Virus record (IMG/VR): IMGVR_UViG_3300009130_000005 | Location: 32,001-96,000 of that record | Reading direction: 5' to 3' (one strand) | Length of the DNA stretch: 64,000 bases | Source of the DNA: a virus | Shown here: positions 1 through 64,000 of the stretch, piece by piece | Numbering within the stretch: position 1 is the stretch's first letter | Layout: every line of letters starts with the position of its first letter | The notes under the pieces: generated by a model | Told to the model about the DNA's origin: nothing | Seen by the model: the letters and a program-made list of their open reading frames with translations, nothing else | Databases searched by the model: none | Position numbers and translations under genes: made by a program

Positions 1-543
1 TTTGGCCTAAGACTAACAGCTTGCGAGGGAACTTCGACTGAAAATAATTGCCATAAAATAATCGTTTTTGCTAAGAATGATTCAGGATGCAAGCTATTAA
101 ACAAGGTATACAGTGAAGCATTCAAAGGGGAGACGCCAGCAATAGACATCAGAAAACTTAAAGAAGTCTGGAACGAAGAAAGCCTAAAGCTTGCGATACC
201 CTTTTATGATTCTTTTATATTTAACAACACAATGTCTTTTGCAAATTGTGTGCCAAGCTTTAATTTTACAAAGCCAACGCTTTTTATAGAGAACAATCAA
301 CTACCATTTGATGGTCTGATCAAGGAAAGGGTAGAGAGGTTTGCGTCTCAAAAAAATCTTGATACAGAAAAAGTAAAGACAATTTATTATAAAAACAGAG
401 AAGACTTTGAGGCATTCCAAACATATAAATGTATTTGCAATAGAACAGGATGGGGAGGAAGGGCCGTATCAATACAAAAGCCAAACTTAGACCATTGCGG
501 TAGTAGAGAATTCTGCCTAGAAAGCTGGAAGGAGCAAGTATGA
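1..543 (+). CDS. PHP domain of DNA polymerase III alpha as a stand-alone ORF (5'-partial)
   Basis: Frame of ORF 232..543 is open back to base 1 (FGLRLTAC...HKIIVFAKNDSGCKLLNKVYSEA, typical DnaE PHP segment). ATGA overlap with the next gene. Confidence 0.7.
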   Translation, partial: FGLRLTACEGTSTENNCHKIIVFAKNDSGCKLLNKVYSEAFKGETPAIDIRKLKEVWNEESLKLAIPFYDSFIFNNTMSFANCVPSFNFTKPTLFIENNQLPFDGLIKERVERFASQKNLDTEKVKTIYYKNREDFEAFQTYKCICNRTGWGGRAVSIQKPNLDHCGSREFCLESWKEQV

Positions 544-6259: not shown

Positions 6260-6657
6260 GGGGGTGTTCTGGATTCGACTGATGTTGGATTCCTGCACCG
6301 CAAGTCGGAGATGCACTTGGCTTCGATACAAATGTGCAAAGCTTTACATGGCGCTAAAAACCGTGTTAGAGCCCTCGGTCTTAAGAACCGTCTCGCTGCA
6401 AAGCGTTTCGGCTTCAAGAGCCGTAAGCTCGCCTTAGCAGCTTAACCTGCTAACCTCTTACCTTTTGACGCAGATAAGGAGGATAAGGGGTCATCGATCT
6501 GCAAAACAGAAAAGGTTTACCTGTTAATAAACTGTAAATAATTGTAACAGGAAGTTCGATGTTAGTATCAACAACTCAAAAAGAAACTAACTAAACTTGT
6601 AGACGTGCTTGATTGAAGGCACTCAGGACGCGGGTTCAACTCCCGCCACCTCCACCA
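6260..6657 (+). ncRNA. ssrA: tmRNA
   Basis: 5' GGGGGTG...GGATTCGAC; 3' GCGGGTTCAACTCCCGCCACCTCCACCA; G3-U70 alanine identity pair; internal tag ORF 6350-6445 ending LALAA*. Confidence 0.95.
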
Positions 6658-17686: not shown

Positions 17687-17896
17687 GGAAGTTCTCGACG
17701 GAGGCTTCCTGTGGGTGACCGAACAAGCCTGTCGTTAGCGGGCTAAGGTATGCAGATTCCCTGTGGTGGGGTAGCAGAGTCCAATCGGATGAGCTAAAGA
17801 CCATATACCGAGTCTAATCTGTGGTTCGAAGTAGGAAAACATTGAACTGATGTTAACGCCGAAAAGTTGGAGGTATTCAGTAGTCCTTCCCCACAC
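17687..17896 (+). ncRNA. Unassigned structured ncRNA (~210 nt)
   Basis: GC-rich stretch with no ORF in the track, between a promoter and a terminator; nested stems (TGTGGG/CCCACA, AGCCTGT/GCGGGCT, GCAGATT/AATCTGT, AACATT/GATGTT). Confidence 0.65.
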
Positions 17897-17903
17897 TTAT
17901 TTT

Positions 17904-47953: not shown

Positions 47954-48996
47954 AAAATTCTCTTAAATTTTGTGAAAAAATGTGTTGACAAACGGGGTAG
48001 AATATGAGATACTATATAAACAATGGGGAAAGAAGCCGATAGAGAAAGAGCCATAATGCGAGAAGTAATCAAGCTCCACAAGAAAATTGATTATCTTACA
48101 GACCAAGTAATGGAGCGACTAGACAAAATGACAGGCGAACAAGCCCAAAAAGATTTTCCGTTTGCACCTACGCCTGACGAAGGTATAAAATCAATAAGAA
48201 TAAAAGGAAGAAACAATGAGTAAATCCGCAACTTGCAGTCGCAATAGTAACATCCAACGCAATATCGAGAATGGACATTACATCCATAACTCTCGATTCC
48301 GTAACTACGGAGAACTTCCCGAAGACCGCCCAAGTTGGGACTTTCGGGTAAAGCGTCACGGACAAGCACTTGCCAAACTAGAACAAGCAGAAAGAAAGAT
48401 TCGTAAACATGGATAATTCAACACAAAAATATGTGGAGTTTGATAAGCTCCAATGGGTATGTAATAAGCCTTTGCCAAGTGTCGGCACAGAGGTAAATGT
48501 CACTATCAATGGCATTGGTCGTTCGGTAGTAGAAAAGTATTTCGTGGAACACGGATTCATTGGACTTATTGTTCAGCCACAAAATCCACCGACTTGGTAT
48601 CGAGAGCAAAATAAGTCTACGAAGGATTCGGCACTTTATGATTGGACTCATTGCCATGTATTTCCTGCGGAAGTCTCCGAGCTTCAAGTTCGGAATAATG
48701 ATGGGAAAGCAGACGAAGAGTTCTACAAAAAGGTACTTCACCCTGCATGATTGATTCAGAAAACTTTTATCTTGTCAAGCAGATTGCTGACCTTCTTGAA
48801 AAGAAACTTGATCTCAAGGTTAAGGATCACGGAATGTGGAGAATACAATGTCTCATACATGATATGATTGAAGAGAAAGAACATATAACAAATAATAAGG
48901 AGAAAGAGAAAATTCATTTAGCGTAATATAATAACAATAAACAAAATCTTTGTAAATAAGCGGTTGGCGTAAGTCCTTCGAGCGGAGGGGTTTGCA

Positions 48997-49015
48997 AAAA
49001 TCGCCCGCCGATTTT
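48997..49015 (+). repeat. Dispersed palindromic element copy R1
   Basis: AAAATCG-CCCGC-CGATTTT. Confidence 0.85.
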
Positions 49016-49668
49016 CTTGAGTTTGTCAAGCTAAATGATTGATAAACTTGTTTGTGAATCATATTTGCGTTTTTTGATTCACAAACGCTAAAAAACTTTT
49101 TTCAATTTCACAAAGAAAAAGGTTGACTTCACCCCAAAACCTGTCATACTAGGTACTATGAATTACGCACAAGAACAACTAGAATACCTTGAGTGGAAGG
49201 CTCAAGCCGAACAAGAAAAACGATATCACCCATGCGACATTAGCGAGGGAGTCTATGCTCTAGTGGATGATGATAGTCCTAGCGAATCGCCAATGTTTTT
49301 CCTTACATTGGAAGGAGCATCAACTTATGCAGAGGGAAGTTACCCTTATTGCAATGGCAATTGGTCGGTATATAGAATTGGTCAAAAGGTAATGTAACTT
49401 TTTCCTTGACAAAGCACCGATAATTTGAGAGAATATATACTATGACACAAAGAAATGCACACATCGACACTCCCGAACAAATTGACGCTTTCAGAGCAAG
49501 AGTATTGTTGAGGGGATTGAAACTAGAAACGCTAGGAATGACTAAACGAGGAGCATCTTGTTATTCCATTATCAAGCAAGAGTATGGGCTGAAGGGCAGT
49601 AAGCAAAAAGTTTACGAGAACTTCAAGAAAATCCTTGACATGAGATAGATAATTTGAGAGAATACACT

Positions 49669-50874
49669 ATGCAAAAACTAGAAAAGCTATACAAGATAGA
49701 CTCGCTTGGGAAACTGAGAGAGTGGACAATGGTTATTGACGGAGACTCATTTCACGCAGAGAAGGGTTTAGTTGGAGGTAAAATCGTATGCGATAAGCCA
49801 ACGACTGCAATCGGCAAGAACGAAGGTAAGGTCAACGAGACTACCAACGAAGAACAAGCATTGCTTGAGGCTCAAGCAAGATGGGACAAGAAACTCAAGG
49901 AAGGTTATGCTCTCACTCCAAAGGAAGCAGAAACCATGAGTTATTACGAACCCATGCTTGCACAAAAGTTTGAAGATAGAGAGAAAGAGATTCAGTCTGT
50001 ATTTGACAATGAAGGCAAAGTCTTTTCTCAAGCCAAACTAGATGGCATCCGTTGCATCATTCGCATGGAAGATGGAGAGATAGTTGCTCGTACTCGCAAG
50101 GGTAGGACTATCGACACAATCCCTCATGTGATTGAGGAACTGAGCGTGTTCTTTGACTGCAACGAAGATGCGATACTAGATGGTGAGTTGTACAATCACG
50201 ACTTGAAGCACGACTTCAACAAGATTGTTTCTCTTGTACGCAAAAAGACTCCCGAAATGACCAAAGGTGATTCGGAAAAAAGTTTTGCAAGAAAAGAAGC
50301 AAAGTATGCTGACGCATTGCAAGAGTCTAAGGGTTTGATTCAGTATTGGGTTTATGATTGCCCAAAGTTGTCAGATGCTTACGATGAGTCAATCGCCTTC
50401 TCCGCTAGAAACTTTATGCTACAAGGAGAGTTCACGGATGTAGTGGATGGGAACTCTGTCAAACTCGTACAGACAGATGAGTCACAATCGTTTGATGAAC
50501 TTGACGAAAAGTATTCAGAGTATATGCAAGATGGTTACGAAGGGCAAATGGTTCGCATCGACTCTCCATATGAGAGCAAGCGTTCAAAGTCTTTGCTCAA
50601 GCGTAAAGAGTTCCAAGATGCAGAATACAAGGTAATTGACATTGAAGAAGGTAATGGCAATCGTAGTGGTACTGCAAAGCATTTGGTGTGCTATTGCGAG
50701 GAAACTGACCAAACCTTCAACTCAAATGTCAAGGGCAACTTTGACTATCTTGCAGAAATCTTAGAGAACAGAGAATACTATATTGGCAAACTTGCCACAA
50801 TCAAGTTCTTTGAGCTTACACCTGATGGAGTGCCTCGCTTTCCTTATGCGATAGCATTTCGAGACTACGAATAA
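49669..50874 (+). CDS. ATP-dependent DNA ligase
   Basis: PMLA, KLDG, LDGELY, EGQMVR, KRS..LLKRK, PRFP. Probable start ATG 49669 just after the -10 element. Confidence 0.92.
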   Translation: MQKLEKLYKIDSLGKLREWTMVIDGDSFHAEKGLVGGKIVCDKPTTAIGKNEGKVNETTNEEQALLEAQARWDKKLKEGYALTPKEAETMSYYEPMLAQKFEDREKEIQSVFDNEGKVFSQAKLDGIRCIIRMEDGEIVARTRKGRTIDTIPHVIEELSVFFDCNEDAILDGELYNHDLKHDFNKIVSLVRKKTPEMTKGDSEKSFARKEAKYADALQESKGLIQYWVYDCPKLSDAYDESIAFSARNFMLQGEFTDVVDGNSVKLVQTDESQSFDELDEKYSEYMQDGYEGQMVRIDSPYESKRSKSLLKRKEFQDAEYKVIDIEEGNGNRSGTAKHLVCYCEETDQTFNSNVKGNFDYLAEILENREYYIGKLATIKFFELTPDGVPRFPYAIAFRDYE

Positions 50875-50895
50875 ACCACAAACATATTGCGAAAA

Positions 50896-51489
50896 ATGAT
50901 TGACCCAAAAAAAGTTACAGACTACAACAGAAACGAATGGCAACTGCAAGAGTTCCTTATCTACTGCGTATGCGTTGCAGGTAAGAAGAGTGAAATTGAA
51001 TCACCAAAGGTTCGCAAGTTTTGCATGGATGCAAGATTTGGATTTGGACTAACTCCATTTGAGCTTATACGCAAACTGCTTTCAGTCTCTTCTGTAGAAG
51101 AAGATGGTTTGATGCAACATCTCAAGAAGTATAAGATTGCACCATATCAGCAACGCTATAATAGCTTCAAGGATATTGCAACCTTACTTGACGGAGATTT
51201 GCGTGAGGTTACAATTGATCAGTTGCAAGAGGTTCGTGGGATCAGCACGAAGACTAGCAGATTCTTTCTTACTCACTCAAGAGAGGATTTCGATGAACCT
51301 GTACTTGATACGCATATTTTGCGATTCCTTACTGACTTTGGATACAAAGATGTTCCGCAGTCAACCCCTCAGAACCCAAAGGTTTACGAAAAGTTTTCCA
51401 AGATATTCAGAAGTATTGCTAGATTTGAGGGTAAAAGCGTTACCGACTTTGATCTAGAGGTATGGACTAAGTATTCCTACGGAAATTGA
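50896..51489 (+). CDS. HhH DNA glycosylase-like protein (Ogg/HhH-GPD superfamily)
   Basis: VRGISTKTSRFFL (HhH with Lys), VLDTHILRFL, DLEVW. Confidence 0.6.
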   Translation: MIDPKKVTDYNRNEWQLQEFLIYCVCVAGKKSEIESPKVRKFCMDARFGFGLTPFELIRKLLSVSSVEEDGLMQHLKKYKIAPYQQRYNSFKDIATLLDGDLREVTIDQLQEVRGISTKTSRFFLTHSREDFDEPVLDTHILRFLTDFGYKDVPQSTPQNPKVYEKFSKIFRSIARFEGKSVTDFDLEVWTKYSYGN

Positions 51490-51524
51490 TTGACAAAGAC
51501 AACAACTTCAACTACTATATTATT

Positions 51525-52253
51525 ATGCAAACATTACAGAAAGCGAAAAAAGATAATTCACGCATTGCTCGTCATGCTGACATCATAGTAACCTCTGATA
51601 GGTACAAACGAGTAGACAACTTCTTCAGCAACCTATCGCTAGGAGTCGTCAAGAAAGAAGAGGCTTATTGGGACGAGCTTACCATCCGTGACGATGCAGA
51701 GTATTTCGCTCGTTGGGTCTTTGGTATAATGAGCGTTCATACTACATGGGAGAGCAATGTGCGAGGTTATAATCTCGCCATGCAAGACTTGTCTTGGACA
51801 ACCTCTAAGGATAGACTAGAGCAGATGGTCATTGATGCAAAGGTTGGAATGTACGAAAGACGCAACAAGGGCTTATGGCAACTTGTTGACAAGTTCCGTG
51901 AAGACCCAAAGCAGTTCTACAAGAAAGAAGATGAAACTTGGCAAGAGTGCAGAAATCGTCTTATAGGTAGCATTTATGGTTTGGCTAACGCAAAGACAAC
52001 TTACTCTATTGCGTTGGCATTCCCTACTGAAGCTCGTCTATGTTGCCTAGATGTCCATTTGCTACGCTTTATGGGGCATGACCTCAAAAAGGGTCACGCA
52101 AGCAATCTGAAGGTCTACGAGGAGATGGAGAACGAGTGGCTAGAGCGTTGCGACAAGTATGATGTCTCACCCAATGTTGCAAGAGAAATCTATTGGAATA
52201 AAGTCCAAAACAGAAGAAACTCTCGCTATTGGTCTTATTGCTTAGAGCGATAA
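51525..52253 (+). CDS. Second HhH DNA glycosylase-like protein
   Basis: IYGLANAK, CLDVHLLRF, Y..ME..W. Confidence 0.55.
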   Translation: MQTLQKAKKDNSRIARHADIIVTSDRYKRVDNFFSNLSLGVVKKEEAYWDELTIRDDAEYFARWVFGIMSVHTTWESNVRGYNLAMQDLSWTTSKDRLEQMVIDAKVGMYERRNKGLWQLVDKFREDPKQFYKKEDETWQECRNRLIGSIYGLANAKTTYSIALAFPTEARLCCLDVHLLRFMGHDLKKGHASNLKVYEEMENEWLERCDKYDVSPNVAREIYWNKVQNRRNSRYWSYCLER

Positions 52254-52811
52254 CAAGAAAGGATATTATCATGGGTATACATCAAAACGCTCCAAATCTT
52301 AACGCATTGATGGAAGAGGGAGAACTTCCCGATGATGCGATATATTATCCTGAATATGACAAGGCAATCCTTGGATTCACGACAAAAGGTCAAATCGTAT
52401 ACGATGTAGACGCTTGTGTGCAATGCTTAGTCGATGACCAAGACATGGGTTACGAGGAGGCTACCGAATATTTTTGGTTCAATACGGAAGGTGCTTACTT
52501 TGGTGACAAAACACCAATTTTCCTAAACCAAAGGGCGCAACATAATGGATAATATTGTTATGTTTTTCTTTTATGTTTTTATTGCCTATTTACTTTTCCT
52601 TCAATACCGATAGAATAAGATGTGAACAAAAGTGAAATAGAGGAATACTTCGAAGCTATCAATTGGTTTGAAAAGCTGCAAAAGGATGAAGTAGAAATAG
52701 AGCAAATAGTCCAAGAGATGTTCCGACTATTCCCCTATACAAGCACAAAGTTATTGCACCAAGGTTTCTTTATGGCGATTGTCTCAATGAACTGATTATC
52801 AGCGATTTGGG

Positions 52812-52830
52812 AAAATCGCCCCACGATTTT
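52812..52830 (+). repeat. Dispersed palindromic element copy R2
   Basis: AAAATCG-CCCCA-CGATTTT. Confidence 0.85.
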
Positions 52831-52939
52831 TTTAAAGCCACATAAATCCTTCATTGTCAACAGTTTTCGTAAGAAAAAAACTTTAGTTTTATGCAATTTA
52901 GGGGTTGACTTCACAAGCTTTTCTGTCATACTATATATT

Positions 52940-53338
52940 ATGAAACGCACTAAGAATGACAAGAAGTATGATCTCGACTTTGACCGCAAAGTCTTTGTCT
53001 ATAAAAACTTGCACAAGGGTTGTTGGAGCATCAAGCAAGATGGTCTTGTTAAGGCTCACGCAACGGAGTTGACCCTTTATGGATGTAATATGTATGTGAA
53101 CCGCAAAGGTAGGCAAAGAGTATTGAGGGAAAAAAGAAAGAATGTTCATGCAGGAATCAAAGGCTACCTCAGGGATGCAGAGCTTGAGCGTGTTTGGGGC
53201 GACTTGCCCGAAGATCAGTTTGACGAGATAACATACAATCCTTACAAGTATTCCTCATTCGTTCACACTAAGGATGAGTCTCCTCGTTGGTTTGGGATTA
53301 TCGCAAAACTTGAAGAAAAAAGAGTACTTATTGCTTGA
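52940..53338 (+). CDS. Conserved phage hypothetical protein
   Basis: VYKNLH...WS...RKNVHA...YNPY pattern. Confidence 0.6.
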   Translation: MKRTKNDKKYDLDFDRKVFVYKNLHKGCWSIKQDGLVKAHATELTLYGCNMYVNRKGRQRVLREKRKNVHAGIKGYLRDAELERVWGDLPEDQFDEITYNPYKYSSFVHTKDESPRWFGIIAKLEEKRVLIA

Positions 53339-53363
53339 CAAAACGCATAAACCCAACTAGACT
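53335..53363 (+). promoter_or_regulatory. Representative sigma70-like leaderless promoter overlapping the upstream stop codon
   Basis: TTGACA (contains the TGA stop)-N17-TAGACT-N6-ATG. Confidence 0.75.
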
Positions 53364-53625
53364 ACTATAATGAAACACAAACTAAGCCGAGAAGACCTTG
53401 AGGTAATCTTTGATGTCCTCAATGTTTATGACCCAAACGACATAAGCCATGTCTACCCCGAAATGGGAGAAAGCGAATTCACTACGCAAGTTGAAAAAAC
53501 TTGGAAGAAAGTCTTGAGTATGCTAGACTATGACCCAACCATTTCATGGGATTATACTCTTGGGAAGCCCGATCCGTTCTGCGAAAATGCTTGACAATCA
53601 CGACCAAAACTGAGAGAATATAACC

Positions 53626-54027
53626 ATGAAAACACTATATATCGTAAGAGGACTTCCAGGAAGTGGCAAGTCTAGCCTAGCAAAGAAAGTCACGGAGTTA
53701 GTATACTCTGCTGACGATTTCTTCACCAACAAGAAGGGTGAATACAATTTCAACGCCAAACTACTCGGCAAAGCACATGAGTGGTGTTGGGGCAAAGTAA
53801 GAGATGCAATGTTCATTGGAGCAAATGCAGTTGCCGTTGCCAATACCTTCACTCAAGCATGGGAGGCAGAAAAGTATTATCAGATTGCAGAGGAATACGG
53901 ATACTCTGTCTTTGTAATTGAATGTCAAAATGACTTCGGTAATGTCCATGATGTACCACAAGAAAGTATTGATGCAATGAGAGAAAGATGGGAAAAAGAC
54001 TTGACTCCTGTCGCCAATCTGTCATAA
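53626..54027 (+). CDS. P-loop kinase (AAA_33 / N4BP2-like polynucleotide kinase)
   Basis: RGLPGSGKS, SADDFF, AH.WC, NTF...WE, NVH.VP. Confidence 0.75.
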   Translation: MKTLYIVRGLPGSGKSSLAKKVTELVYSADDFFTNKKGEYNFNAKLLGKAHEWCWGKVRDAMFIGANAVAVANTFTQAWEAEKYYQIAEEYGYSVFVIECQNDFGNVHDVPQESIDAMRERWEKDLTPVANLS

Positions 54028-54059
54028 TTGAACACATAACACTAACAAAAGGATATATT

Positions 54060-54476
54060 ATGGGATTAGACCAATATGCATACGCAACCCCTAAAGGGAC
54101 AGAAGAACAAGAAGAACTCGCTTATTGGAGGAAGCACAATCGACTCCAAGGATGGATGGAGCAACTTTGGGAAGACAAAGGTAGACCATTCGATGGAGAG
54201 AAAGATGAAGGAAACCCAATGGGTGATTTCAACTGCGTTCCTGTTGAACTTACTTTGTCAGACCTTGAACAACTTGAGGCTCATGTAGAAAACAAAGCAT
54301 TGCCCGAAACAGGTGGGTTCTTCTTTGGTAGCGACTCCTTTGGTTGGACAACTGAAGATGGCGAAGAGTATGGAGAGAATGATTATCATTACAAAGAAGA
54401 TGACCTCCAATTCATCGAAAAAGCTCGTAAAGCTATCGAAGAAGGCAAGAAGGTATTCTACAACTGCTGGTGGTAA
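54060..54476 (+). CDS. Conserved phage hypothetical protein
   Basis: MGLDQY...YWRK.N...GFFFG...Y.CWW. Confidence 0.6.
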   Translation: MGLDQYAYATPKGTEEQEELAYWRKHNRLQGWMEQLWEDKGRPFDGEKDEGNPMGDFNCVPVELTLSDLEQLEAHVENKALPETGGFFFGSDSFGWTTEDGEEYGENDYHYKEDDLQFIEKARKAIEEGKKVFYNCWW

Positions 54477-55818
54477 GATGCAAGTATTGAAACAAATTAT
54501 TGAACATTGGGGTTTTGTTGACTCTCAACAATTACCCGAACTAGCAAAGCATTTTCCCGATACTCCGCTTGTTATCAAATGGGGAGCAATGCCAAGAGAG
54601 CAAATCGTTGCATCAAAAGTTGCTGAACGCATCAAAGAGGTTGAGCAATGGAATCAAGACTATGTTCGTGAGGTTTTTATTTGCTCTGAACAATTTCGCA
54701 AGCTCAAAGAAGTTTTTGGGTTGACAGATGCCTCCTAATCTGAGAGAATACTATAATGCAAACAATAGATATCACACCAACTTGGGAGGCTTGCGTCAAG
54801 ATATACATGGCAGTCCTTGAAAATGAAAACGCATCCTTCACAGGAAAAAGAGAAGCGAGAGCAGAACTCATTCGCCTAGCAAAGATAGTAGACAATCAGA
54901 ACGATAAGGCAAAACAAAAGGAGGAAAACTTTCACCCCGATACAAAAGATAACAACCGATACAACAACGCAGATGTTGATGTAGATATGCTAAACCAAAT
55001 GTACAACCAAACTATATAATCATGGGCAAAAAAGCTAGAGAAAAAGGAATACCTAACGCAGAAACGCATAAAGCTCTGCACACAATCGCAAAGAAGTCTT
55101 CTCACGGAGGCAACAAACCATTGGTAGAATCTTTGACTAATCCTAATGTGATGGTCACGCAAAAGGTTCGCAAGGCACAAGAAAGAAGGAGGGCAGTATA
55201 ATGGGAGAATGGGATTCATATATTGATGCAGTTGTCGCAGTAGACGAACTTGGCACTTTACCTCCTTTGGAGTCTGAACCCGAATACGATGCGGATTCTG
55301 ACACATGGGCTTTACACTTTGAATACGAAGACCCTATGATGGGCGGTAACGATATGGTGACCTTGCACTTCGATAAAGAAGAGGATGCAATCTTTACTGC
55401 AAACAAAATTGTAAGCGATAGGCATATCGCAATGTTGGAACTAGAAAGAAAGAAAGCTGAAAAAGTCCTTGACAAACAAGGCTAATTGTGGCATACTATA
55501 TATTATGAAACTGAAAAAGAAAAAGACAAAACTCGAAAACACTATCACTAACCTTCTTGCGCGTGGCACAGCCATTGCAAGTTTTGACTACAACGGAGTT
55601 TCTCGTAATGTAATCATTGGGGCAAACGCATCGTCCCAAGGAGACAGGCAATGGGGGCAAATGTCCAACAAGGCTATTGTTGAACACAAGGGAAAGAAGT
55701 ATCTTTCTGCTCGTGTCAATAACGACATTGGTCATGTCAAGGCATTCTCCCTCGACAAAATTTCCAATTTTCAAGTTGATGGTTCTGTAGTGTAACCGTT
55801 GGTTAGTGGTGTGTTCAT

Positions 55819-55850
55819 ACGGAGGGTCCATTCGGGCCCTCCGTTTTTTT
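55819..55850 (+). terminator. Rho-independent terminator
   Basis: ACGGAGGGTCC-ATTC-GGGCCCTCCGT followed by a T run. Confidence 0.8.
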
Positions 55851-55902
55851 GTATCCCTGCAAATAGGCAGTCATAAGTATTTGCTCTATCGGGGGTTACG
55901 AA

Positions 55903-55921
55903 AAAATCGCCCGCCGATTTC
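55903..55921 (+). repeat. Dispersed palindromic element copy R3
   Basis: AAAATCG-CCCGC-CGATTTC followed by GTGCCAA. Confidence 0.85.
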
Positions 55922-56031
55922 GTGCCAATTTCACAAGTATCTAATGGGTAGGCAGATAGGCTCACAAAAAAAAACACCCGATTAAGCTTTTTTTTCTTGC
56001 AATTACCTCAGATTCTGTCATACTTATAGTT

Positions 56032-56157
56032 ATGAAAGTGAGAGAGATAAAGATAAGAAAGACCATTCTTTTCACCAAGTCTCGCCCACACAAGGTAAAG
56101 AAGAACACACTACATCGCAAACGCAAACACAAGGAGAACCTAAATCATGTATCTTAA
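56032..56157 (+). CDS. Small basic ArfA-like peptide (not in ORF track)
   Basis: MKVREIKIRKTILFTKSRPHKVKKNTLHRKRKHKENLNHVS; own promoter. Confidence 0.5.
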   Translation: MKVREIKIRKTILFTKSRPHKVKKNTLHRKRKHKENLNHVS

Positions 56158-56442
56158 CGAAGAATATAACGAAAACGAAATCACTACCGCACTTGACGCA
56201 AACGAGCAAGCTATGGACTTGGTTTATGAGTTCGCAATCGCTCCAATGGAGAAAGAAATGACAGAAGAACAAGCCTACGCAATCGCTATTGCAGGTGCAA
56301 CCTTGAAGACCATTGCCCAAAAAGCATACGCTTACGAAAAAATGCAAAAAGGTCAAAATTTGCAAAATTAGGGGTTGACAAACGCACGAATTTTTGAGAT
56401 AATTATAACCATAATCAAGATAATCCAACACGAAAAAAAATT

Positions 56443-57195
56443 ATGAATAGACTAAACCTAAACATCTGCGGTGGCGAACATACTAAAGTGGGCTTCGATG
56501 AAGTCTGTGCAGTAGAGACTCCGCAAGCTACTGAAACTTGGCGACCAATCAGCCATAGCTACCTCATCGACAGGGTTCGCACCCATCTTGATGACAATGG
56601 CTACGAGATTGTCGCTGAAAACCACAACCTCGCTCGTTTCGGGCAACGCTACTTTGGATTGTTCCAAGTAAACAACAAGGACAGAGAGCAAGGCGATAGA
56701 GGCACTATCCTCGGACTTCGCAATGCTCACGACAAGTGCTTTCCTGCAGGACTTTGTGCAGGTGACGCTCCTTTCGTTTGCGACAACCTTGTTTTTCACA
56801 ATGAGATTGTCCTTGCTCGTAGGCATACCAAGAACATTATGACTGACCTTCCGCAAGTCATCGCTCGTACCATCGGCAAGTTGTCGGGTATGTGGAACAC
56901 TCAAGACAAGCGGATTGAGTCCTACAAGGACTATGATGTCACCAATGCTCAAGCAAATGACCTTGTCATCCGTGCTTACCAAGCAGGAGCAATCAGCAAG
57001 GCAAAGATTGCTGATGTCGTTGAGCAATGGGAAACTCCCGAACACCCCGAATTCAAGGATAGGAACATGAACTCCTTGTACAATGGGTTTACGGCAGTTC
57101 TCCGTGGCGGTGTCATGCAGTTGCCAAAGCGTTCTGACGCTCTGCACTCTGTTCTTGACTCTGAAGTCGGACTGACTCTCGCAACCAAATCTTAA
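56443..57195 (+). CDS. DUF932/DUF945-family protein
   Basis: T.TW.PISH, FG, GLRN.HDK, FVCDNL, RRHT, LYN.FT. Confidence 0.7.
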   Translation: MNRLNLNICGGEHTKVGFDEVCAVETPQATETWRPISHSYLIDRVRTHLDDNGYEIVAENHNLARFGQRYFGLFQVNNKDREQGDRGTILGLRNAHDKCFPAGLCAGDAPFVCDNLVFHNEIVLARRHTKNIMTDLPQVIARTIGKLSGMWNTQDKRIESYKDYDVTNAQANDLVIRAYQAGAISKAKIADVVEQWETPEHPEFKDRNMNSLYNGFTAVLRGGVMQLPKRSDALHSVLDSEVGLTLATKS

Positions 57196-57531
57196 TCATA
57201 AACCATAGGAATAACTGATATGAAGCATAACAACCTCTCATCTGTTCTCAATAACCTCAAAGGGCGATTCGTTTCGGTTCTTGTCAAGGATGGTGCAAAT
57301 CGCACTTCCTATTCGGCAAAGCTGAAGAGTCACAACTCTGAGGTGGTAACCTTCGTTGATACTAACGAAAGCAAGGGGCGAGTCTTTCGCAAGGTTCGCA
57401 GGTCTGCGGTGCTTGGGCTGAAAAGCGGTAAGCATTCGTTCCGTAGGACGAAAGCCCTGTAAAGGGCAAATAGGCAAATAGCCGACCAAATAGTCCCAAG
57501 GGCGCAAGCCCTTGGGGCTTAGTGGTTTACG

Positions 57532-57550
57532 GAAATCGCCCAGCGATTTT
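57532..57550 (+). repeat. Dispersed palindromic element copy R4
   Basis: GAAATCG-CCCAG-CGATTTT followed by CATGCCAA. Confidence 0.85.
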
Positions 57551-57635
57551 CATGCCAAAGTTTTTTTGAGAAAAGGCTTGACTTATGGCTGACTTCTGTC
57601 ATAATTGTATTCAGTTCTTTTGATAATCAAGTTGT

Positions 57636-57761
57636 GGGCTTGTAGCTTAGTCTGGTCTAGAGCCTTGTCCTCCTTCATCGTGAAATTCTAGATAAATTAG
57701 CGAACGGAGTAATTACCCGTGGAGCAAACAAGAGGCGGGGGTTCAAATCCCTCCAAGCCCT
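57636..57761 (+). ncRNA. tRNA-like RNA with ~50-nt insertion in the anticodon loop
   Basis: Acceptor GGGCTTG/CAAGCCC, D-arm GCTT...GAGC, T-arm GGGGG-TTCAAAT-CCCTC, 57-nt loop; own promoter (TTGACT 57578, CATAAT 57600). Confidence 0.75.
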
Positions 57762-57856
57762 GCTCTTTCAGTAGATGCAAACGCATTGAACAACGAGGCG
57801 TCAGTACACGCCTACAACCCTTCGGGGAGAGAGAAAGAGGTACAACACACAACACT

Positions 57857-57986
57857 TTGGGCATACAACGGACAAGGCTATGGCGAATGAGTTATATCTT
57901 GCCAAGGATAGGAGGCGAAAGCCGTTTGAACTAGCAGTAAGAATAGCAACAAGTCGGTGGGATGCGAGTGGTTGACCAATGCCCAA
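57857..57986 (+). ncRNA. Putative structured ncRNA (~130 nt)
   Basis: Closing stem TTGGGCAT/ATGCCCAA, TGGCGA/TTGCCA stem, GGC-GAAA-GCC tetraloop. Confidence 0.45.
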
Positions 57987-58963
57987 TCTTTTTCAAAAAA
58001 AACCCTTGACAAAAACACATAATCTGTCATACTTATAATCATGAATAACACGGAATCACAATTAGCTTCATTTGAAAATTTGGAATTCAATCAACACCCT
58101 CGCTTTGCTGAAGGCACGGCTATTCAAGCGAGACTCAAGTTTGGGTCGAGAGACCAATTTGAGATTTCAGTCGTCCAAAACATTGGAAGTGGCACAGGCT
58201 TATATGGTCACGAGGATGACAACACTTACGAAGTCGCAATGTGGTTCGATGGAAGAAACACCATGCTTCCCTTATCTCTTTACGACGATGTTCTCGCAGG
58301 ACAATCTCCAAGCGACATCACTCGCCTAATGCATCAAGCACATCTCAACGATTTTGCTTGGGTTACCCTTCTTCACTCTTTGCGAGACGAACATCGCAAG
58401 GAAATGGAGCTTGACAACTAACCTTAACTCTGTCATTATATATGAATTACTCAACCATAGAAGGTTGCATAAGACAATCAACACAAAACAAAATTATGGA
58501 TACACAAAACAACCAATATATAGTTCTCAAGAATGGAGAACCAATGAACATCAAAGGAACGCTTGAGCAAATTACTCATCATGTACGCTTGCTAGAGCAA
58601 GGACTCAATCGACACCTCCAACACTCACCCTATACTATCGGCAAAGCCGATGCAAACTAATTACAAACAAAAAAAGGTATAACTATGAACGAATTCATAA
58701 ATGCGGTAGATAAAATTGTAACGGCTCAACTTGGACTAAGCGTCCATGACTTAGAGGACTTTGCTTTTTGCGATTACTATGACGAAACTTTTGACCCCGA
58801 TGGTTACGACTATCAAAATGCAGTCGAATCCTGTGCGGAAGATTTTCTCGCTGAAGTTGGGAATCTCTTTGTGATGTAGTGATGTGATTAGTCTCTAGGG
58901 CGAAATAGGAAGATGCCAAATACCTACCCTAGTTCGCAAGTCCTTAGGCATCAGGGGCTTGCG

Positions 58964-58982
58964 AAAATCGCCCCGCGATTTT
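58964..58982 (+). repeat. Dispersed palindromic element copy R5
   Basis: AAAATCG-CCCCG-CGATTTT. Confidence 0.85.
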
Positions 58983-59271
58983 TTTAAAGCGTTTTGTAAG
59001 TAATTAGCCTCCAATGCTTTACGAAAGAAAAAAAGTTAGTTTTATGCGTTTTTGGGGTTGACTTAACCCCCTATTTCTGCATAATGGTATATATGAACGC
59101 TAAAGAAAGAATGAATGAATGGAAAAAGCTTCCCGCTAACACTATCCCGTGGGAAACTTTCAAACGCCTAGTGTCTCAGTTCGGAATGGACGAAGGCATA
59201 AAGAAAGCTCAAAAGATAATTGAAAAAAAGGGTTGACTTCACACGAAAATCTGTCATACTAAAGGGATATT

Positions 59272-59994
59272 ATGATAAAACAAACATTGCTCACATCAGG
59301 AAACGCTAAAATTGTCAAGGGCGAAAAACTTGGCTACATTACAAAAGGGCTTCACTTCGCTCCTGCAAACCTTTCGGGGTTTGAGGTTTGCCGTTGGAGA
59401 AGCAAGGGTTGCACAATGGCTTGCCTCAACACAGCAGGTCGTGGACAAATGGACTCTATTCAAAATGCTCGCATCGCAAAGACAAAGCTATTCTTCGAGA
59501 AGCAGTTTGACTTTCTTGCAAAGCTAACAAAAGAGATTGCTTCCACTATCAAGTCAGCAGCCAAGAAAGAAATGCAAGCAGTTTTTCGTTTGAACCTCAC
59601 GAGCGACATTGCATGGGAATCTGTTTTCTTTGATGAAGAAAAGCCTCAAAACATTTTCGACAAGTTTCCCGAAACGAAATTTTATGATTACACTAAGTCT
59701 TTCGGGCGTATGGCTCAATTCCTCAATGGCGAGTTGCCAAGCAATTACCATTTGACTTTCTCAGCTTCCGAGCATAACCAAAAGCTAGTCGAGATGGTTT
59801 TGGAAATGGGGGGTAATGTTGCCGTGGTCTTTCGTGACCAACTGCCTTGTACTTGGAAGGGTTTTGAAGTTGTCAATGGTGATGCAAACGATTTGCGTTT
59901 CCTTGACAAGTCGGGCGTGGTCGTTGGGCTTATCGAAAAAGGTCTTGCCAAAAAGGACGAAACAGGATTCGTACAGGAAGGGGTAAATTCATGA
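59272..59994 (+). CDS. Gene88/GP88-like Cys-motif phage protein
   Basis: N.K..K, LHFAPA, VC...S.GC...CL..AGRG, RLN.TSD, FYDYTK, GD.NDLRFLD. Confidence 0.6.
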   Translation: MIKQTLLTSGNAKIVKGEKLGYITKGLHFAPANLSGFEVCRWRSKGCTMACLNTAGRGQMDSIQNARIAKTKLFFEKQFDFLAKLTKEIASTIKSAAKKEMQAVFRLNLTSDIAWESVFFDEEKPQNIFDKFPETKFYDYTKSFGRMAQFLNGELPSNYHLTFSASEHNQKLVEMVLEMGGNVAVVFRDQLPCTWKGFEVVNGDANDLRFLDKSGVVVGLIEKGLAKKDETGFVQEGVNS

Positions 59995-60233
59995 GTGACT
60001 ATTACGAATCAGCAAAAGGAATAATGATAACGAGAGACCGAGCCTTGCAAGAGATTCGGAATCACAATCTAGAAAACTTTGAAGAATTTTTTGAAGACTT
60101 AGGAGACAGAGAACATTATGATGCACAATCCGTCTTGATTTGGCTAGGATACTAAATAGCCAGTTTTCAGGACATTCAGCAAATAGGCAAATAGCTAGTC
60201 TTGACCTAAGTTACTCAGTAGTAGGCATTTGCG

Positions 60234-60252
60234 AAAATCGCCCCGCGATTTT
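60234..60252 (+). repeat. Dispersed palindromic element copy R6
   Basis: AAAATCG-CCCCG-CGATTTT followed by TATGCCAA. Confidence 0.85.
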
Positions 60253-60666
60253 TATGCCAATCGCCTAAGCTCTTGATTGAAAAGCTGTTAGGAGGGCCAA
60301 ACCCATACCATTGCCAAGATAGCAATGACGGGCCAACCCATAACAAAAACTAATTGTGCTAATTCCATATGATTACCTTTCGTTGAAAACTCCTGCGTTT
60401 TGCTCTTGGAACTTGAAGTGGCTATCGTGGCAACGAGAGCGAGAACCGCCAAGCTCACGAAAGTTTCGAATCTCACGAGAGACTTCAAAGCGAGCTTGCC
60501 AAGCCTTACCCCAAGCGTCAGATTGCTCTTGTAGAGACTTTGAGGAATCCCAAAGGGCGTTGCACTCTCTGTTGAGAGTTTCGAATTTTTTGTTCAATTC
60601 TTTTATTTCTAACATAAGTATAATCTAATCTATTTTTTCGTAAATTGCAAGCAAAAAGTGATAAAG

Positions 60667-60939
60667 TTATTCACATTGCATAGCTTTCATTTCATCTCCA
60701 ATCTCTTTCATGATTCGGGCTTGCTCGTTTTCTTTGTCGAGCTTTGCCTTTTCATGCTTGAGGTCGAAAAGTTGACCTTTCAGATCTCTAAGAGTTCCGC
60801 CAAAAACATCGTTGGCAACTGCGATAGTCATTGCAGTTTCGGGCGTAGCCCTTGCGTTCATGCGATCAAGTGCGTTTTGCATTTCAGCAATTTCAATTTC
60901 CTTAAGGCGAATGTGTTCTTCTATTTTCATCAATTTCAT
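60667..60939 (-). CDS. Hypothetical coiled-coil protein
   Basis: Minus-strand ORF with its own promoter; ends in CE*. Confidence 0.55.
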   Translation of the reverse strand: MKLMKIEEHIRLKEIEIAEMQNALDRMNARATPETAMTIAVANDVFGGTLRDLKGQLFDLKHEKAKLDKENEQARIMKEIGDEMKAMQCE

Positions 60940-60990
60940 ATATATAATGTAGCAGAGTTAGTTAGTAATTGCAAGCAAAATCGTATCAAG

Positions 60991-61095
60991 TTATTCACAA
61001 TCTTTCTTGTGCTTAACCTTGCGTGAGTATTTGGACTTGTCCTTGTGAGGGCGAGCCTTAGTGAAAACGATTGGGATTCTTACCTTAACTTTCAT
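60991..61095 (-). CDS. Small basic ArfA-like peptide (not in ORF track)
   Basis: MKVKVRIPIVFTKARPHKDKSKYSRKVKHKKDCE; paralog of 56032..56157. Confidence 0.5.
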   Translation of the reverse strand: MKVKVRIPIVFTKARPHKDKSKYSRKVKHKKDCE

Positions 61096-61184
61096 ATATA
61101 GAATATAGCATATAAAGTTAGCTTTGTCAAATTCTTTTTTCAATTATTTTGCAATGCAAACCTCTGACTATCAAAGGCTTAGCC

Positions 61185-61203
61185 GAAATCGGCGGGCGAT
61201 TTT
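61185..61203 (-). repeat. Dispersed palindromic element copy R7 (inverted)
   Basis: GAAATCG-GCGGG-CGATTTT. Confidence 0.85.
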
Positions 61204-61471
61204 CGACTCAGAAGTCGTGCTGGGCGTGGTAGCCGTAGTCGATGTCCTCAGACTCCTCGAAGTCGAGGAGGGCAACCCTGTCCTGCAGGTCACCGATTTC
61301 GTTGCGAATCGCAACTCGGTCAGCAACCGAAAGGACGCAGTCCTTAAGGGTTTCGTGAAGGATGGAGATTTCTTTGAGCATTTCTGATTTAGTCATACAT
61401 ACAACATACCCAAGAAACAGGCAAAAGTCAAGAAAAACTTTCAACTATTTTATGGACTTATTCTATCAGGA

Positions 61472-61490
61472 AAAATCGCCCGCCGATTTC
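61472..61490 (+). repeat. Dispersed palindromic element copy R8
   Basis: AAAATCG-CCCGC-CGATTTC followed by GTGCCAA. Confidence 0.85.
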
Positions 61491-61730
61491 GTGCCAAAAA
61501 CTTTTTTGCTAATTTCATCATTTTTTGCTTGCGTTTACCTTGCTTTCTGTCATTATATAGGGATGAACACAACAAGAAAACCTCTAACCTTAGATTATAC
61601 AAAATGGACATCCTAACAATTATTGCTCTTACGATCATTCTTTTTCGAGAAATTCAAAATTTTTAGTTGACAGAACTTAAAAACTAGTCTAGTATCATAT
61701 ACAGAATCAAGATTGCTAACCTAAACAAAA

Positions 61731-62369
61731 ATGAACATTGCACAAACTATTGATCCCAAACTCATCGAAAACTCCCTCAACTCTGTTGCAACCAATGGGG
61801 TAACGCATCACGGCTACGCTTTTGAAGAGTTTCTTATTCTCGCCCTTGGATTTACCGAGGAAGATGGCACAACCTACCGATCCGTCAAGCAAGGTGGAAC
61901 TCAACTTCACAACCAAGATTTCGACATTCCTGCCGAGGTTGTCGCTCGCAATCCAATCATTCCCCAAAGTCTCCAAGGGAATTGGTCGGTTAAGGCTTGC
62001 GAACATGGCAAGACGATTGGCTTAGGCATGGCAAGCAATCAGTTTGACGCATGGGCTAAGGATGGCATCGTGCAAGCAATCGCATTCTACAAGAAAGAAG
62101 GTGATCGCAAGGTGGTAACTCATTTCTCAATCCATCGCATCGAGCCATCCGCAAAGCTATGGGGCAACCTCACAAAGGAAAAGATTGCCGAGATCGACCC
62201 AATGGTTCGCAAGGACAAGTCGATCACATGGTCAAAAGAGCAAACCAAAAAGCTCAACAGGTCAGCAAACGGCATGATTGGGTTGCGTAACATTTCAAGA
62301 GAAAAGACCAACTCAAGAAACCTTCAATGCTACATGACTTTTTCCAATTATATGCAATTAGTTGCTTGA
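61731..62369 (+). CDS. Hypothetical protein, possible restriction-endonuclease-like fold
   Basis: HG..FE, D.DI, SVK pattern; weak. Confidence 0.4.
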   Translation: MNIAQTIDPKLIENSLNSVATNGVTHHGYAFEEFLILALGFTEEDGTTYRSVKQGGTQLHNQDFDIPAEVVARNPIIPQSLQGNWSVKACEHGKTIGLGMASNQFDAWAKDGIVQAIAFYKKEGDRKVVTHFSIHRIEPSAKLWGNLTKEKIAEIDPMVRKDKSITWSKEQTKKLNRSANGMIGLRNISREKTNSRNLQCYMTFSNYMQLVA

Positions 62370-62400
62370 CAAAAACCCTAGAATCTGAGAGAATACAATT

Positions 62401-62646
62401 ATGCAAAACACTACTACATACAACGGATGGAAGAATCACGCCACTTGGAATGTCGCACTTTGGATTGGTGGCGACCAAGGACTCTACGAGTTCGCCAAGG
62501 AATGCGAAAGCTACAACGATTTTGTGGAGCAACTCCGTGAGGTTTCGGGTGATAGCTCTATCGGATACCAAACCCCCGACAGGGTAGCTTGGAACGATTC
62601 GGGCATTGACATTCCCGAGCTAGACGAGTACATCGCAAACCTCTAA
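62401..62646 (+). CDS. Conserved phage hypothetical protein
   Basis: YNGW.N.ATWNV.LW, TPD.V.W. Confidence 0.6.
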   Translation: MQNTTTYNGWKNHATWNVALWIGGDQGLYEFAKECESYNDFVEQLREVSGDSSIGYQTPDRVAWNDSGIDIPELDEYIANL

Positions 62647-62673
62647 CACTCAAAGCCTTACGCGATTGGCACA

Positions 62674-62692
62674 GAAATCGCGGGGCGATTTT
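62674..62692 (-). repeat. Dispersed palindromic element copy R9 (inverted)
   Basis: TGGCACA followed by GAAATCG-CGGGG-CGATTTT. Confidence 0.85.
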
Positions 62693-63635
62693 TAATCGAT
62701 TTTTTTTTGCGCATTTCTTTGCCATTCAAGGGGTTATGCAATATTTTTGCACGAGATTGCATTTTTGGGCATTTTTTCTCCGCGAAGGGTGAAAGTTTTT
62801 TTGTTTTTCTATTAGTTGTATATCAAGGACTTATGACAATTTAAGGTAGCTGAATACGAATTTGCTTGCGGTTTTGTCAATTTCTGTCATACTGTATTAC
62901 ATGATTAAGATTAAGAAAGTAACCCCAAAGTTCACGAAAGGCGATGTCCTTATTTCACGAGACAACAAAGTCTTTCAATTCATCGAGGCAGTCGAGCATG
63001 ACACGCTTGGCACGATTGCCAAAGTTCGCCCTTACAGGACAAACCGAGAAGTCGGTATCCGTTTCGAGGATGTAAAACTTCATCCGTTTTTTTCTTAATT
63101 TAGCCCTTGACAGGAACCCCTTTTATCTCTAGTATTACAATCATGACAGAATCACAAAGACTCGAACTCATCGCTAACGCAGTAGCTTCCGCCAACAAGG
63201 TCGCTCCACAGTTTCAAGGACTCCTTGACGAGCTAAAGGCTGAAAAGCTCGCTGAGGACTTAGTTCTCGAACATGGTACTCAACACGCCTCGAAGGAGGA
63301 CATTGAAGAGGAGTTTGTCTCCCTCGATGCAGTCGAGTCCGACAAGGACGACATTGACGAAGATGACGAGAACGTTGTCGATATGGATTTCGTCAGCGAG
63401 TCCATGCGTGAAATTTTCAATTCCTAACCACTAACAGAAAGGCAATCATGTATATTCTCAAAAGTATTCTCAACCAAGCGGGCGCCGTTTGGCAAGTCGA
63501 ATCCATTGCCATGCGCAAGGTAGAGGCCGAAAGGCTTCTCAAGCGTAGGCTTTCAACCAATGACGGTTCTCGCCGTTACGGGTTGTTTCCCGCTTCATAA
63601 ACCCTTAAGACTTAGCCACTTATGAAAGTGGCACA

Positions 63636-63654
63636 GAAATCGCGGGGCGATTTT
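63636..63654 (-). repeat. Dispersed palindromic element copy R10 (inverted)
   Basis: TGGCACA followed by GAAATCG-CGGGG-CGATTTT. Confidence 0.85.
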
Positions 63655-64000
63655 CGCTAACCCCTTGGACATCAGTAAGTTAAGCCCTAAAAAAAGATAA
63701 CTTTCTTCATTTTTTTTTGCAATAGCCCTTGACAAAAGGGGTTTCCTGTGCTATATTATATACATGATTAAGAATAAAACTAGACTCATCGAGATTCACG
63801 AATGGACTTCATTCATCTCTGTCAAGATTCACGAAGATGGAGATTACCCACGGGTTCGCTCCGCAAGTACTCTCAAGTACTTCAACGAGATTCTGAAGGA
63901 TGAGCTTTCGCACGCCCGTTCTCTTGGTTACGAGCCACAAATCAAACGCTCAGGCGTTGGCAAGTTTGGCGGTATCAAGTACAAAGACTTGCACAAACTA

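Follow-up and report, generated by a model that had tools for sequence, protein, structure and literature searches.

The window, the whole stretch of 64,000 nucleotides analysed here, comprises bases 32001–96000 of one 116,466-bp viral record (IMG/VR IMGVR_UViG_3300009130_000005, the reference record), which CheckV rates as 76% complete. In its right-hand part, short early genes are separated by copies of an intergenic palindrome, AAATCG-N5-CGATTT (the dyad), and this element is our subject. The reference record encodes a DnaE-type polymerase, a ClpB-like ATPase, rIIA and an ATP-dependent ligase, has its large terminase near the record end, and carries a transfer-messenger RNA (window 6260–6657; Rfam, 132 bits), a manA RNA (17687–17899; 83 bits) and tRNAs. 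We detected no lysogeny genes in the phage. All runs containing its DNA were marine (20 runs from 12 studies), and a megablast search of positions 48900–63700 against 50,697 phage records gave zero matches. The terminase shares only about 25% identity with its counterpart in any cultured phage, Firmicutes phages among them; this identity and the Atlas neighbours of the Hsp20 protein, which are mostly viral, were uninformative as clues to the host. For comparison we used three relatives, G001, G002 and G003, which are IMG/VR contigs recovered by pattern scan; the four records are 39–76% complete.

The dyad occurs ten times in exact form in the window (Table 1), and in 100 dinucleotide shuffles of the window its mean and maximum counts were both 0. 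These are the ten places named in a preliminary description of this DNA, whose coordinates were 1 nt lower with the preceding A or G included. That description also had no copy in the first 48 kb, and none precedes 48998; it spoke of modules of 0.3–3.8 kb, and the starts of successive copies lie 287 to 3815 nt apart; and the copies that it placed on the minus strand (61186, 62675 and 63637) have G-rich spacers. The whole reference record holds 12 copies, all within genome positions 80998–98268 (17 kb), with the two beyond the window at window-equivalent 64835 and 66268. Near-copies are scarce in the record: zero with one mismatch and only two with two mismatches, both located elsewhere. Whole-record searches of G001, G002 and G003 found 9, 6 and 8 exact copies, each set within about 13 kb, and none of a reversed control pattern, so the element is conserved in related phages, the test on which it had been staked beforehand. 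In 16–20-kb stretches taken from the same relatives, which also served for gene mapping, there are a further 1, 4 and 3 copies with one mismatch, always at an outer arm position. Together these form the set of 43 copies used below (12 from the reference record, 23 exact and 8 one-mismatch from the relatives). Three further fragments (G005, G006 and G007) hold 4, 1 and 1 copies, at contig ends. Outside phages, a scan of GTDB with the class A box-plus-dyad pattern gave 2 single matches, about 1 being expected, in unrelated sequence of genomes with 60–65% GC, and revealed no host, prophage or comparable element.

The arms of the dyad are essentially invariant: all 12 copies in the reference record are exact, and the relatives depart from them only in the 8 one-mismatch copies. 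The spacers are GC-rich and asymmetric and take at least 14 forms among the 43 copies. Essentially invariant arms around varying spacers point to sequence-specific recognition of the arms rather than to homogenisation by recombination alone. As judged from sequence, the arms are likely to be a site for a sequence-specific, dimeric protein.

Every copy stands where one short early unit ends, ahead of the AT-rich upstream region and the sigma70-type leaderless promoter of the unit that follows. A gene ends 18–120 nt before each copy, and the next sigma70 promoter lies 24–108 nt after most copies (8 of 10 in the window, by manual reading), with a mode of 75–76 nt in 7 of the 26 distances measured; A/T tracts lie between. 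The intergenic position claimed in the preliminary description agrees with promoter and open reading frame (ORF) mapping and with codon-position substitution patterns against the relatives, in which changes fall at third codon positions in plus-strand ORFs 55505, 56147, 57220 and 58685 and in minus-strand ORF 61208–61396. About 40 sigma70-type promoters (TTGACA-N16–18-TG-extended –10) were found in the reference record, for example at window 49123–49160, 53591–53628 and 63729–63766, with the ATG 4–9 nt beyond the –10 element, so that the mRNAs would be leaderless. No Shine–Dalgarno sequence was found upstream of genes throughout the record. Leaderless genes with consensus proteobacterial-type promoters are unusual for a phage and may help to identify the host.

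Comparison with the relatives indicates that the copies mark the borders of mobile cassettes. We mapped the genes of the reference record onto the relatives. Modules M1-M2-M3 have the same order in all genomes, after which the series continues with M4 in the reference record, with M8 in G001 and with M5 in both G002 and G003. In every one of the four genomes copies bound the gp88 module M5, but its neighbours differ from genome to genome. G002 has M9 and M10 in inverted orientation. With 16 ORFs set aside as antisense shadows or overlaps, a copy was counted at 14 of the 22 rearranged junctions and at 10 of the 57 junctions with colinear order (odds ratio 8.2, p = 2e-4). For the most part, gene content does differ exactly between copies, a check proposed in the preliminary description. 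Single copies can be chimeric: in the G001 copy at 11592, the left flank corresponds to that of the reference copy at 57533 (score 28) and the right flank to that of 61473 (score 45; next best 18), which places a crossover within the core. Contigs from marine runs contain joints at or beside copies (62692 to 61498, 61532 to 63626), which are supporting evidence only, several of these contigs having sides of just 21–54 nt and coming from relatives. This comparison supports the view that the copies are joints at which cassettes were exchanged, moved and inverted among relatives. The crossovers map inside a core of about 25–30 bp and would arise most simply via short-homology recombination.

The same observations bear on an integron-like alternative, in which a dedicated recombinase would cut cassettes out and insert them, with the dyad as its core site. 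Cassettes that are bounded by copies, moved and inverted, crossovers that map to the core, and inverted arms around a short spacer, as in recombinase core sites, would all fit. However, neither the tyrosine recombinase profile Phage_integrase (PF00589) nor the serine recombinase profile Resolvase (PF00239) matched in any of the four records, all fragments, and HNH gave a single match in them, below threshold and containing a stop codon. The records being fragments, these non-matches and those of Sigma54_DBD, ParB_N and RecA reported below are not absences. The spacers also differ between copies, and differing spacers would block strand exchange by tyrosine recombinases; and other joints lie inside sigma70 promoters, as homology-driven exchange predicts. 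We consider a dedicated recombinase highly improbable; of the recombination site suggested in the preliminary description, the role as a joint is supported and the recombinase was not found in these fragments.

A second sequence overlaps the dyad. Most copies open with (T)TGGCA(C/T)(G/A) when read on the strand complementary to the C-rich spacer. Exact TGGCA boxes number 33 and are carried by 30 of the 43 copies, three of which are boxed on both sides (TGGCA...TGCCA); by manual count, CGATTGGCA is the reading of about 9 of the 33. GC follows TGGCA at exactly 8 nt in 33 of 33 boxes and at 7 or 9 nt in none, which corresponds to GG-N10-GC, the –24/–12 geometry of sigma-54 promoters. In the available text of two papers the sigma-54 consensus is TGGCAC-N5-TTGCW (PMC2831329, PMC4591121), with GG and GC as the conserved positions (PMC2831329). 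Box and arm are separated by 2 nt in 19 of the boxes and by 3 nt in the other 14, and the length of this linker co-varies with the spacer, in 14 distinct linker/spacer combinations; when linker lengths were permuted among the boxes, none of 20000 trials reached 33 (maximum 27). In L001, TGGCA-N8-GC occurs 10 times against 1.97 expected.

Canonical sites of this kind also occur away from the dyad. In all four phages, a leaderless hsp20 gene has TGGCAYG-N4-NTGCA 11–13 nt 5′ of its ATG, although the surrounding sequence has diverged, and E. coli ibpB is controlled by sigma-54 (PMC2831329, available text). Perfect TGGCAC-N5-TTGC sites number 3 in the reference record, 2 of them in the window, where 0.07 are expected. 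These two lie at window 55564–55578 (plus strand), inside and in sense with the plus-strand gene 55505–55795, and at 241–255 (minus strand), antisense within a plus-strand gene; the former may be a chance occurrence, because the box pattern does not match at the homologous place in the relatives. We rejected TTGGCA as a sigma70 –35 element, as no –10 element lies at 17 nt, and an N4-type hairpin promoter, as there is no ORF for a giant virion RNA polymerase (largest ORF 857 aa). An arrangement of boxes diverging from one centre holds in the reference record and fails in G001–G003 (box strands against gene order, read manually).

Table 1 Dyad copies, overlapping boxes and flanking features, in window coordinates unless stated otherwise.
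Feature	Position	Strand	Details
Dyad copy 1	48998–49014	+	Spacer CCCGC; no TGGCA box; next sigma70-like promoter 108 nt rightward
Dyad copy 2	52813–52829	+	Spacer CCCCA; no box; T7 after; sigma70 promoter 75 nt rightward; extra GCGATTT half-site 52802–52808
Canonical terminator hairpin	55819–55844	+	–21.7 kcal/mol; T7 after; 60 nt before copy 3
Single GCAAATAG	55859–55866	+	Precedes copy 3
Dyad copy 3 (55904–55920) with box	55904–55927	-	Box TGGCACGAAATCGGC, 55927 to 55913; faces left into 3′ end of plus-strand gene 55505–55795; predicted start ~55901
Tandem GCAAATAG and hairpin	57466–57516	+	GCAAATAG at 57466 and 57474; CAAATAG again at 57487; GCAA-loop hairpin 57495–57516, –18.4 kcal/mol, before copy 4
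Dyad copy 4 (57533–57549) with box	57533–57557	-	Box 57557 to 57543; back to back with sigma70 promoter 57578–57605 of tRNA-like gene
Dyad copy 5	58965–58981	+	Spacer CCCCG; no box; T7 after; sigma70 promoter 76 nt rightward (59058–59085)
Tandem GCAAATAG	60179–60194	+	Units at 60179 and 60187; precedes copy 6
Dyad copy 6 (60235–60251) with box	60235–60259	-	Box 60259 to 60245; apparently between converging genes, the right-hand minus-strand ORF being inferred only
IHF-consensus site beside copy 6	starts 60266	-	
Dyad copy 7	61186–61202	-	No box; just 3′ of minus-strand gene 61208–61396, 5′ of minus-strand sigma70 promoter 61130–61102
Dyad copy 8 (61473–61489) with box	61473–61496	-	Box 61496 to 61482; sense toward sigma70 promoter 61431–61403 and leaderless minus-strand gene 61208–61396
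Box TGGCACAGAAATCGC (62667–62681) with dyad copy 9 (62675–62691)	62667–62691	+	Predicted start ~62693; sense toward gene 62901–63098; extra CGCGATT half-site 62661–62667
Box (63629–63643) with dyad copy 10 (63637–63653)	63629–63653	+	Predicted start ~63655; 75 nt 5′ of sigma70 promoter 63729–63757
hsp20 gene	genome 99476–99889; window-equivalent 67476–67889 (L002:3476–3889)	-	Pfam HSP20 E = 1.2e-15; promoter TGGCACG-N4-TTGCA

The closest functional analogue among described elements is the promoter-early stem-loop (PeSL) cassette of T4-type phages (Arbiol et al. 2010, PMC2839356; Comeau et al. 2014, PMC4122927), so that the earlier statement that the element matches nothing described was too strong. 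In the available text of these papers, a PeSL comprises an intergenic stem-loop, an AT-rich tract and a strong sigma70-like early promoter in a hyperplastic region of small ORFs; it stands beside insertions, deletions and replacements between relatives, and short-homology recombination and transcriptional insulation of cassettes have been proposed for it. Here, too, a stem-loop lies 5′ of an AT-rich tract and a sigma70-like promoter, and the elements cluster in a hyperplastic, rearranged region. In contrast, the element has no Shine–Dalgarno sequence and start codon at its 3′ end, its promoters are leaderless, and the phage, with its DnaE-type polymerase and distant terminase, is not T4-like. 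The stem is also weak and its sequence invariant, and most copies bear a sigma-54-type box with compensated spacing, a feature not described in the available PeSL texts. The invariant dyad with this overlapping box is what is new here relative to PeSL.

Our preferred reading, which we hold with a probability of roughly one half, is that, among uncultured marine phages of one family, the dyad is the core of a PeSL-like composite cassette-boundary element within their hyperplastic early region, and that boxed copies of the element dock the host sigma-54 holoenzyme. Dyad and box together would form a sigma-54-type –24/–12 site, in which the GC of the –12 element would come from the arm/spacer junction and the linker length would offset the spacer sequence, and a putative host sigma-54 holoenzyme would dock on the boxed copies. 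Where the box faces the next cassette (61473, 62675, 63637, 64835 and 66268), it could provide a second, enhancer-gated input in tandem with the sigma70 promoter. Backward-facing boxes (55904, 57533 and 60235), placed back to back with a sigma70 promoter or facing the 3′ end of the preceding gene, may act via occupancy or short antisense transcription, and the weak hairpin would contribute a modest attenuator effect at most. From the sequences we infer two activities, sigma-54 docking and a separate dyad binder. The likeness to sigma-54 promoters lies in the fixed GG-N10-GC, the –24 half, the canonical hsp20 examples and sites nearby that resemble the consensus for integration host factor (IHF). 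Such IHF-like sites are enriched near the copies: perfect ones number 3 where 0.5 are expected, and those with no more than one mismatch number 15 where 5.2 are expected. The differences are a –12 half that reads TCGC or CGGC rather than TTGC, a location inside an invariant palindrome, and many copies that face away from genes.

Several results weigh against this reading. The –12 element is CGC in 14 boxes and GGC in 19, never the expected TGC, which these phages do retain in their hsp20 promoters, so the boxes would be weak or atypical sigma-54 sites; according to the available text of PMC4591121, sigma-54 sites in E. coli in vivo rarely depart from TGC, and TCGC variants of the –12 element exist with low enrichment scores (its Table 2). 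In 13 of the 43 copies the dyad has no box, and sigma-54 therefore cannot explain the dyad itself. By manual reading, 3 of 8 boxes in the reference record, and in G001 about 6 of 9, face the 3′ ends of genes in antisense direction and have no gene to transcribe, and in E. coli bound sigma-54 holoenzyme showed no roadblock repression (PMC4591121, available text). The two linker classes could derive from one ancestral indel, in which case the permutation result would be inflated. As for cognate proteins, the Sigma54_activat profile matched only a generic ClpB-like AAA+ protein in G000 and nothing in the incomplete records G001–G003; Sigma54_DBD, which would mark a sigma-54 homologue, had 0 matches in the fragments searched; and a Pfam search of 20 distinct early proteins, 10 of them also searched with PHROGs, gave no dyad-binding candidate, helix-turn-helix proteins included. 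On the side of cassette exchange, a copy is absent from 8 of the 22 rearranged junctions, and other joints in marine contigs lie inside sigma70 promoters (58016 to 63136), so the dyad is not the sole crossover point. We also identified no activator or upstream activator site for the boxes in the four incomplete records, no DNA-binding family among 10 late-end genes searched with PHROGs, and no ParB_N or RecA match in the fragments searched.

A dimeric protein that recognises the arms could also account for much of this on its own. The dyad would then be the operator of one phage or host protein that controls or insulates all early cassettes, with the TGGCA box as an extended site or incidental. 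The 6-N5-6 layout with its half-sites one helical turn apart, the invariance of the arms across so many spacers, the box-less copies that retain the dyad and the two-sided symmetry of three copies in relatives would all be natural features of such an operator, and a position upstream of promoters fits. It resembles, in this respect, the C1 operators of phage P1, the stoperators of mycobacteriophage L5 and the 12 KorB sites of plasmid RK2, in which about a dozen near-identical short intergenic sites are spread across a block of transcription units. However, those systems have a cognate regulator, of which we found none (no DNA-binding family in the 20 early proteins searched and no ParB); the sites here mark the borders of cassettes instead of covering promoters, and the phage showed no lysogeny genes. 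The distance to the promoter varies, the sites do not cover the –35 and –10 elements, which repressor sites usually overlap, and a symmetric binder leaves the tracking of linker and spacer that keeps TGGCA-N8-GC fixed unexplained. We regard a global operator as unlikely. The multi-protein platform of the preliminary description is plausible in the light of the invariant arms, the compensated box and the IHF-like sites, with no regulator found for it in the incomplete records; a signal for DNA entry or organisation, also raised there, found no support in any result.

Folding bears on a further alternative, a plain PeSL-type stem-loop that would work as a bidirectional intrinsic terminator or attenuator, its sequence kept by recombination between copies and its likeness to sigma-54 sites a coincidence. 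Copies lie just after gene ends, and the symmetry of AAAATCG...CGATTTT suits both directions. A U-tract follows the stem in some copies only, among them the box-less 52813 and 58965. In the available text, similar stems (A3-4G3-loop-C3T3-4) are described for PeSLs of Vibrio phage nt-1 and PeSL stem-loops have been shown to terminate transcription (PMC4122927, PMC2839356). However, the 21-nt dyad cores are predicted to fold at only –2.9 to –8.5 kcal/mol with A-U pairs counted and have 2–3 G-C pairs per stem, compared with –18 to –22 kcal/mol for the terminator-like hairpins of the phage itself, which copies 3 and 4 have a short way upstream. Of the 10 copies in the stretch scanned for terminators, only 1 passed, and the dyad does not form the stable GC-rich stem followed by a U-tract of an intrinsic terminator. 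That the dyad hairpins are weak and that strong terminators exist separately speak against a role mainly in termination, and the dyad stands in both orientations relative to transcription. The 43 copies contain no compensatory or wobble changes, their spacer variation is incompatible with homogenisation by recombination, and the compensated spacing of the boxes would go unexplained, which makes a plain stem-loop, in our view, quite unlikely. Rfam covariance models run on the dyad copies (48800–64000, at the gathering threshold and at E ≤ 1) returned no family, the only hit being tRNA-like (57636–57761).

The sequences that flank the dyads are heterogeneous. The looser flanking dyads of about 25 bp in the preliminary description are present, not as one dyad type but as strong GC hairpins, IHF-consensus-like sites and A-tract/T-tract pairs. 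The combination of a conserved palindrome with IHF-like sites, 3′ of genes in intergenic DNA and in either orientation, recalls the bacterial interspersed mosaic elements and repetitive extragenic palindromes of enterobacteria; those are chromosomal, differ in sequence and have stable GC-rich stems. The GCAAATAG repeat was correctly placed before three copies, in tandem before two (Table 1). It also occurs at 52702, and the sites listed make up 6 of its 8 plus-strand occurrences in the genome. A role as stop codons in all frames was rejected, because the repeat covers only two. One extra GGCAAATA unit is present at window 57464 in a contig of marine run X6, which indicates that the number of GCAAATAG repeats varies in natural populations. 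The hairpin at 57495–57516 and its homologues (L017, L018 and L019), which precede the M3-side copies, show paired substitutions between phages (CCCAAGGGC/GCCCTTGGG, CCTTAGGGG/CCCCTGAGG and GCCCCGAGGAG/CTCCTTGGGGC), which argue for selection on its structure, in contrast to the dyad. CTATTTG repeats come after this hairpin on the minus strand, where it could act as the terminator of a short RNA running leftward from the box at 57557. Extra CGATT/AATCG half-sites adjoin some copies (window 62661–62702, 60245–60264 and 52802–52819), as in GCGATT-GGCAC..., and half-sites at copies could form mutually exclusive, attenuator-like hairpins (1:2 versus 2:3).

Some neighbouring genes stand out. Directly behind the sigma70 promoter at 57578–57605 is a 126-nt tRNA-like gene (Rfam tRNA, 43.7 bits), which ARAGORN did not call and which has an insertion of about 55 nt relative to a normal tRNA. 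A DUF932 protein (window 56443–57195) is 94–99% identical across the four phages, and a 47-aa protein (59093–59236) is 96–100% identical in G001 and G003, with no match in the stretch of G002 examined; identities among their neighbours are far lower, at 31–90%. Both are candidates for host take-over or regulatory factors.

A bolder form of the preferred reading, in which boxed copies dock sigma-54 holoenzyme, is that an abundant marine phage family has sigma-54-type promoters built into an invariant palindrome at the borders of mobile cassettes, so that each moving cassette would come under dual control, with a constitutive sigma70 leaderless promoter and a sigma-54 site gated by an enhancer or a phage factor. 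Backward copies would then be antisense or occupancy switches on the preceding cassette, and the atypical –12 element (CGC/GGC) with the palindrome would define a new promoter class, read by the sigma-54 holoenzyme with a phage dyad-binding partner or without a classical activator. We put this forward tentatively and consider it rather unlikely.

If sigma-54 holoenzyme binds, a virulent-looking phage would have wired many of its early cassettes to a stress and nutrient sigma factor of its host. Cyanophages, with their PhoB- and NtcA-responsive promoters, provide a parallel for such wiring to host factors. Our literature search turned up no phage reported to exploit sigma-54 promoters of its host; all it returned was the prediction of a sigma-54-like protein in Pectobacterium phage Q19 (PMC7693777). 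Whatever the outcome for sigma-54, the copies extend PeSL-style cassette shuffling beyond T4-type phages, and the 17-bp dyad provides a clean, sequence-defined joint for studying gene exchange in the hyperplastic regions of marine phages.

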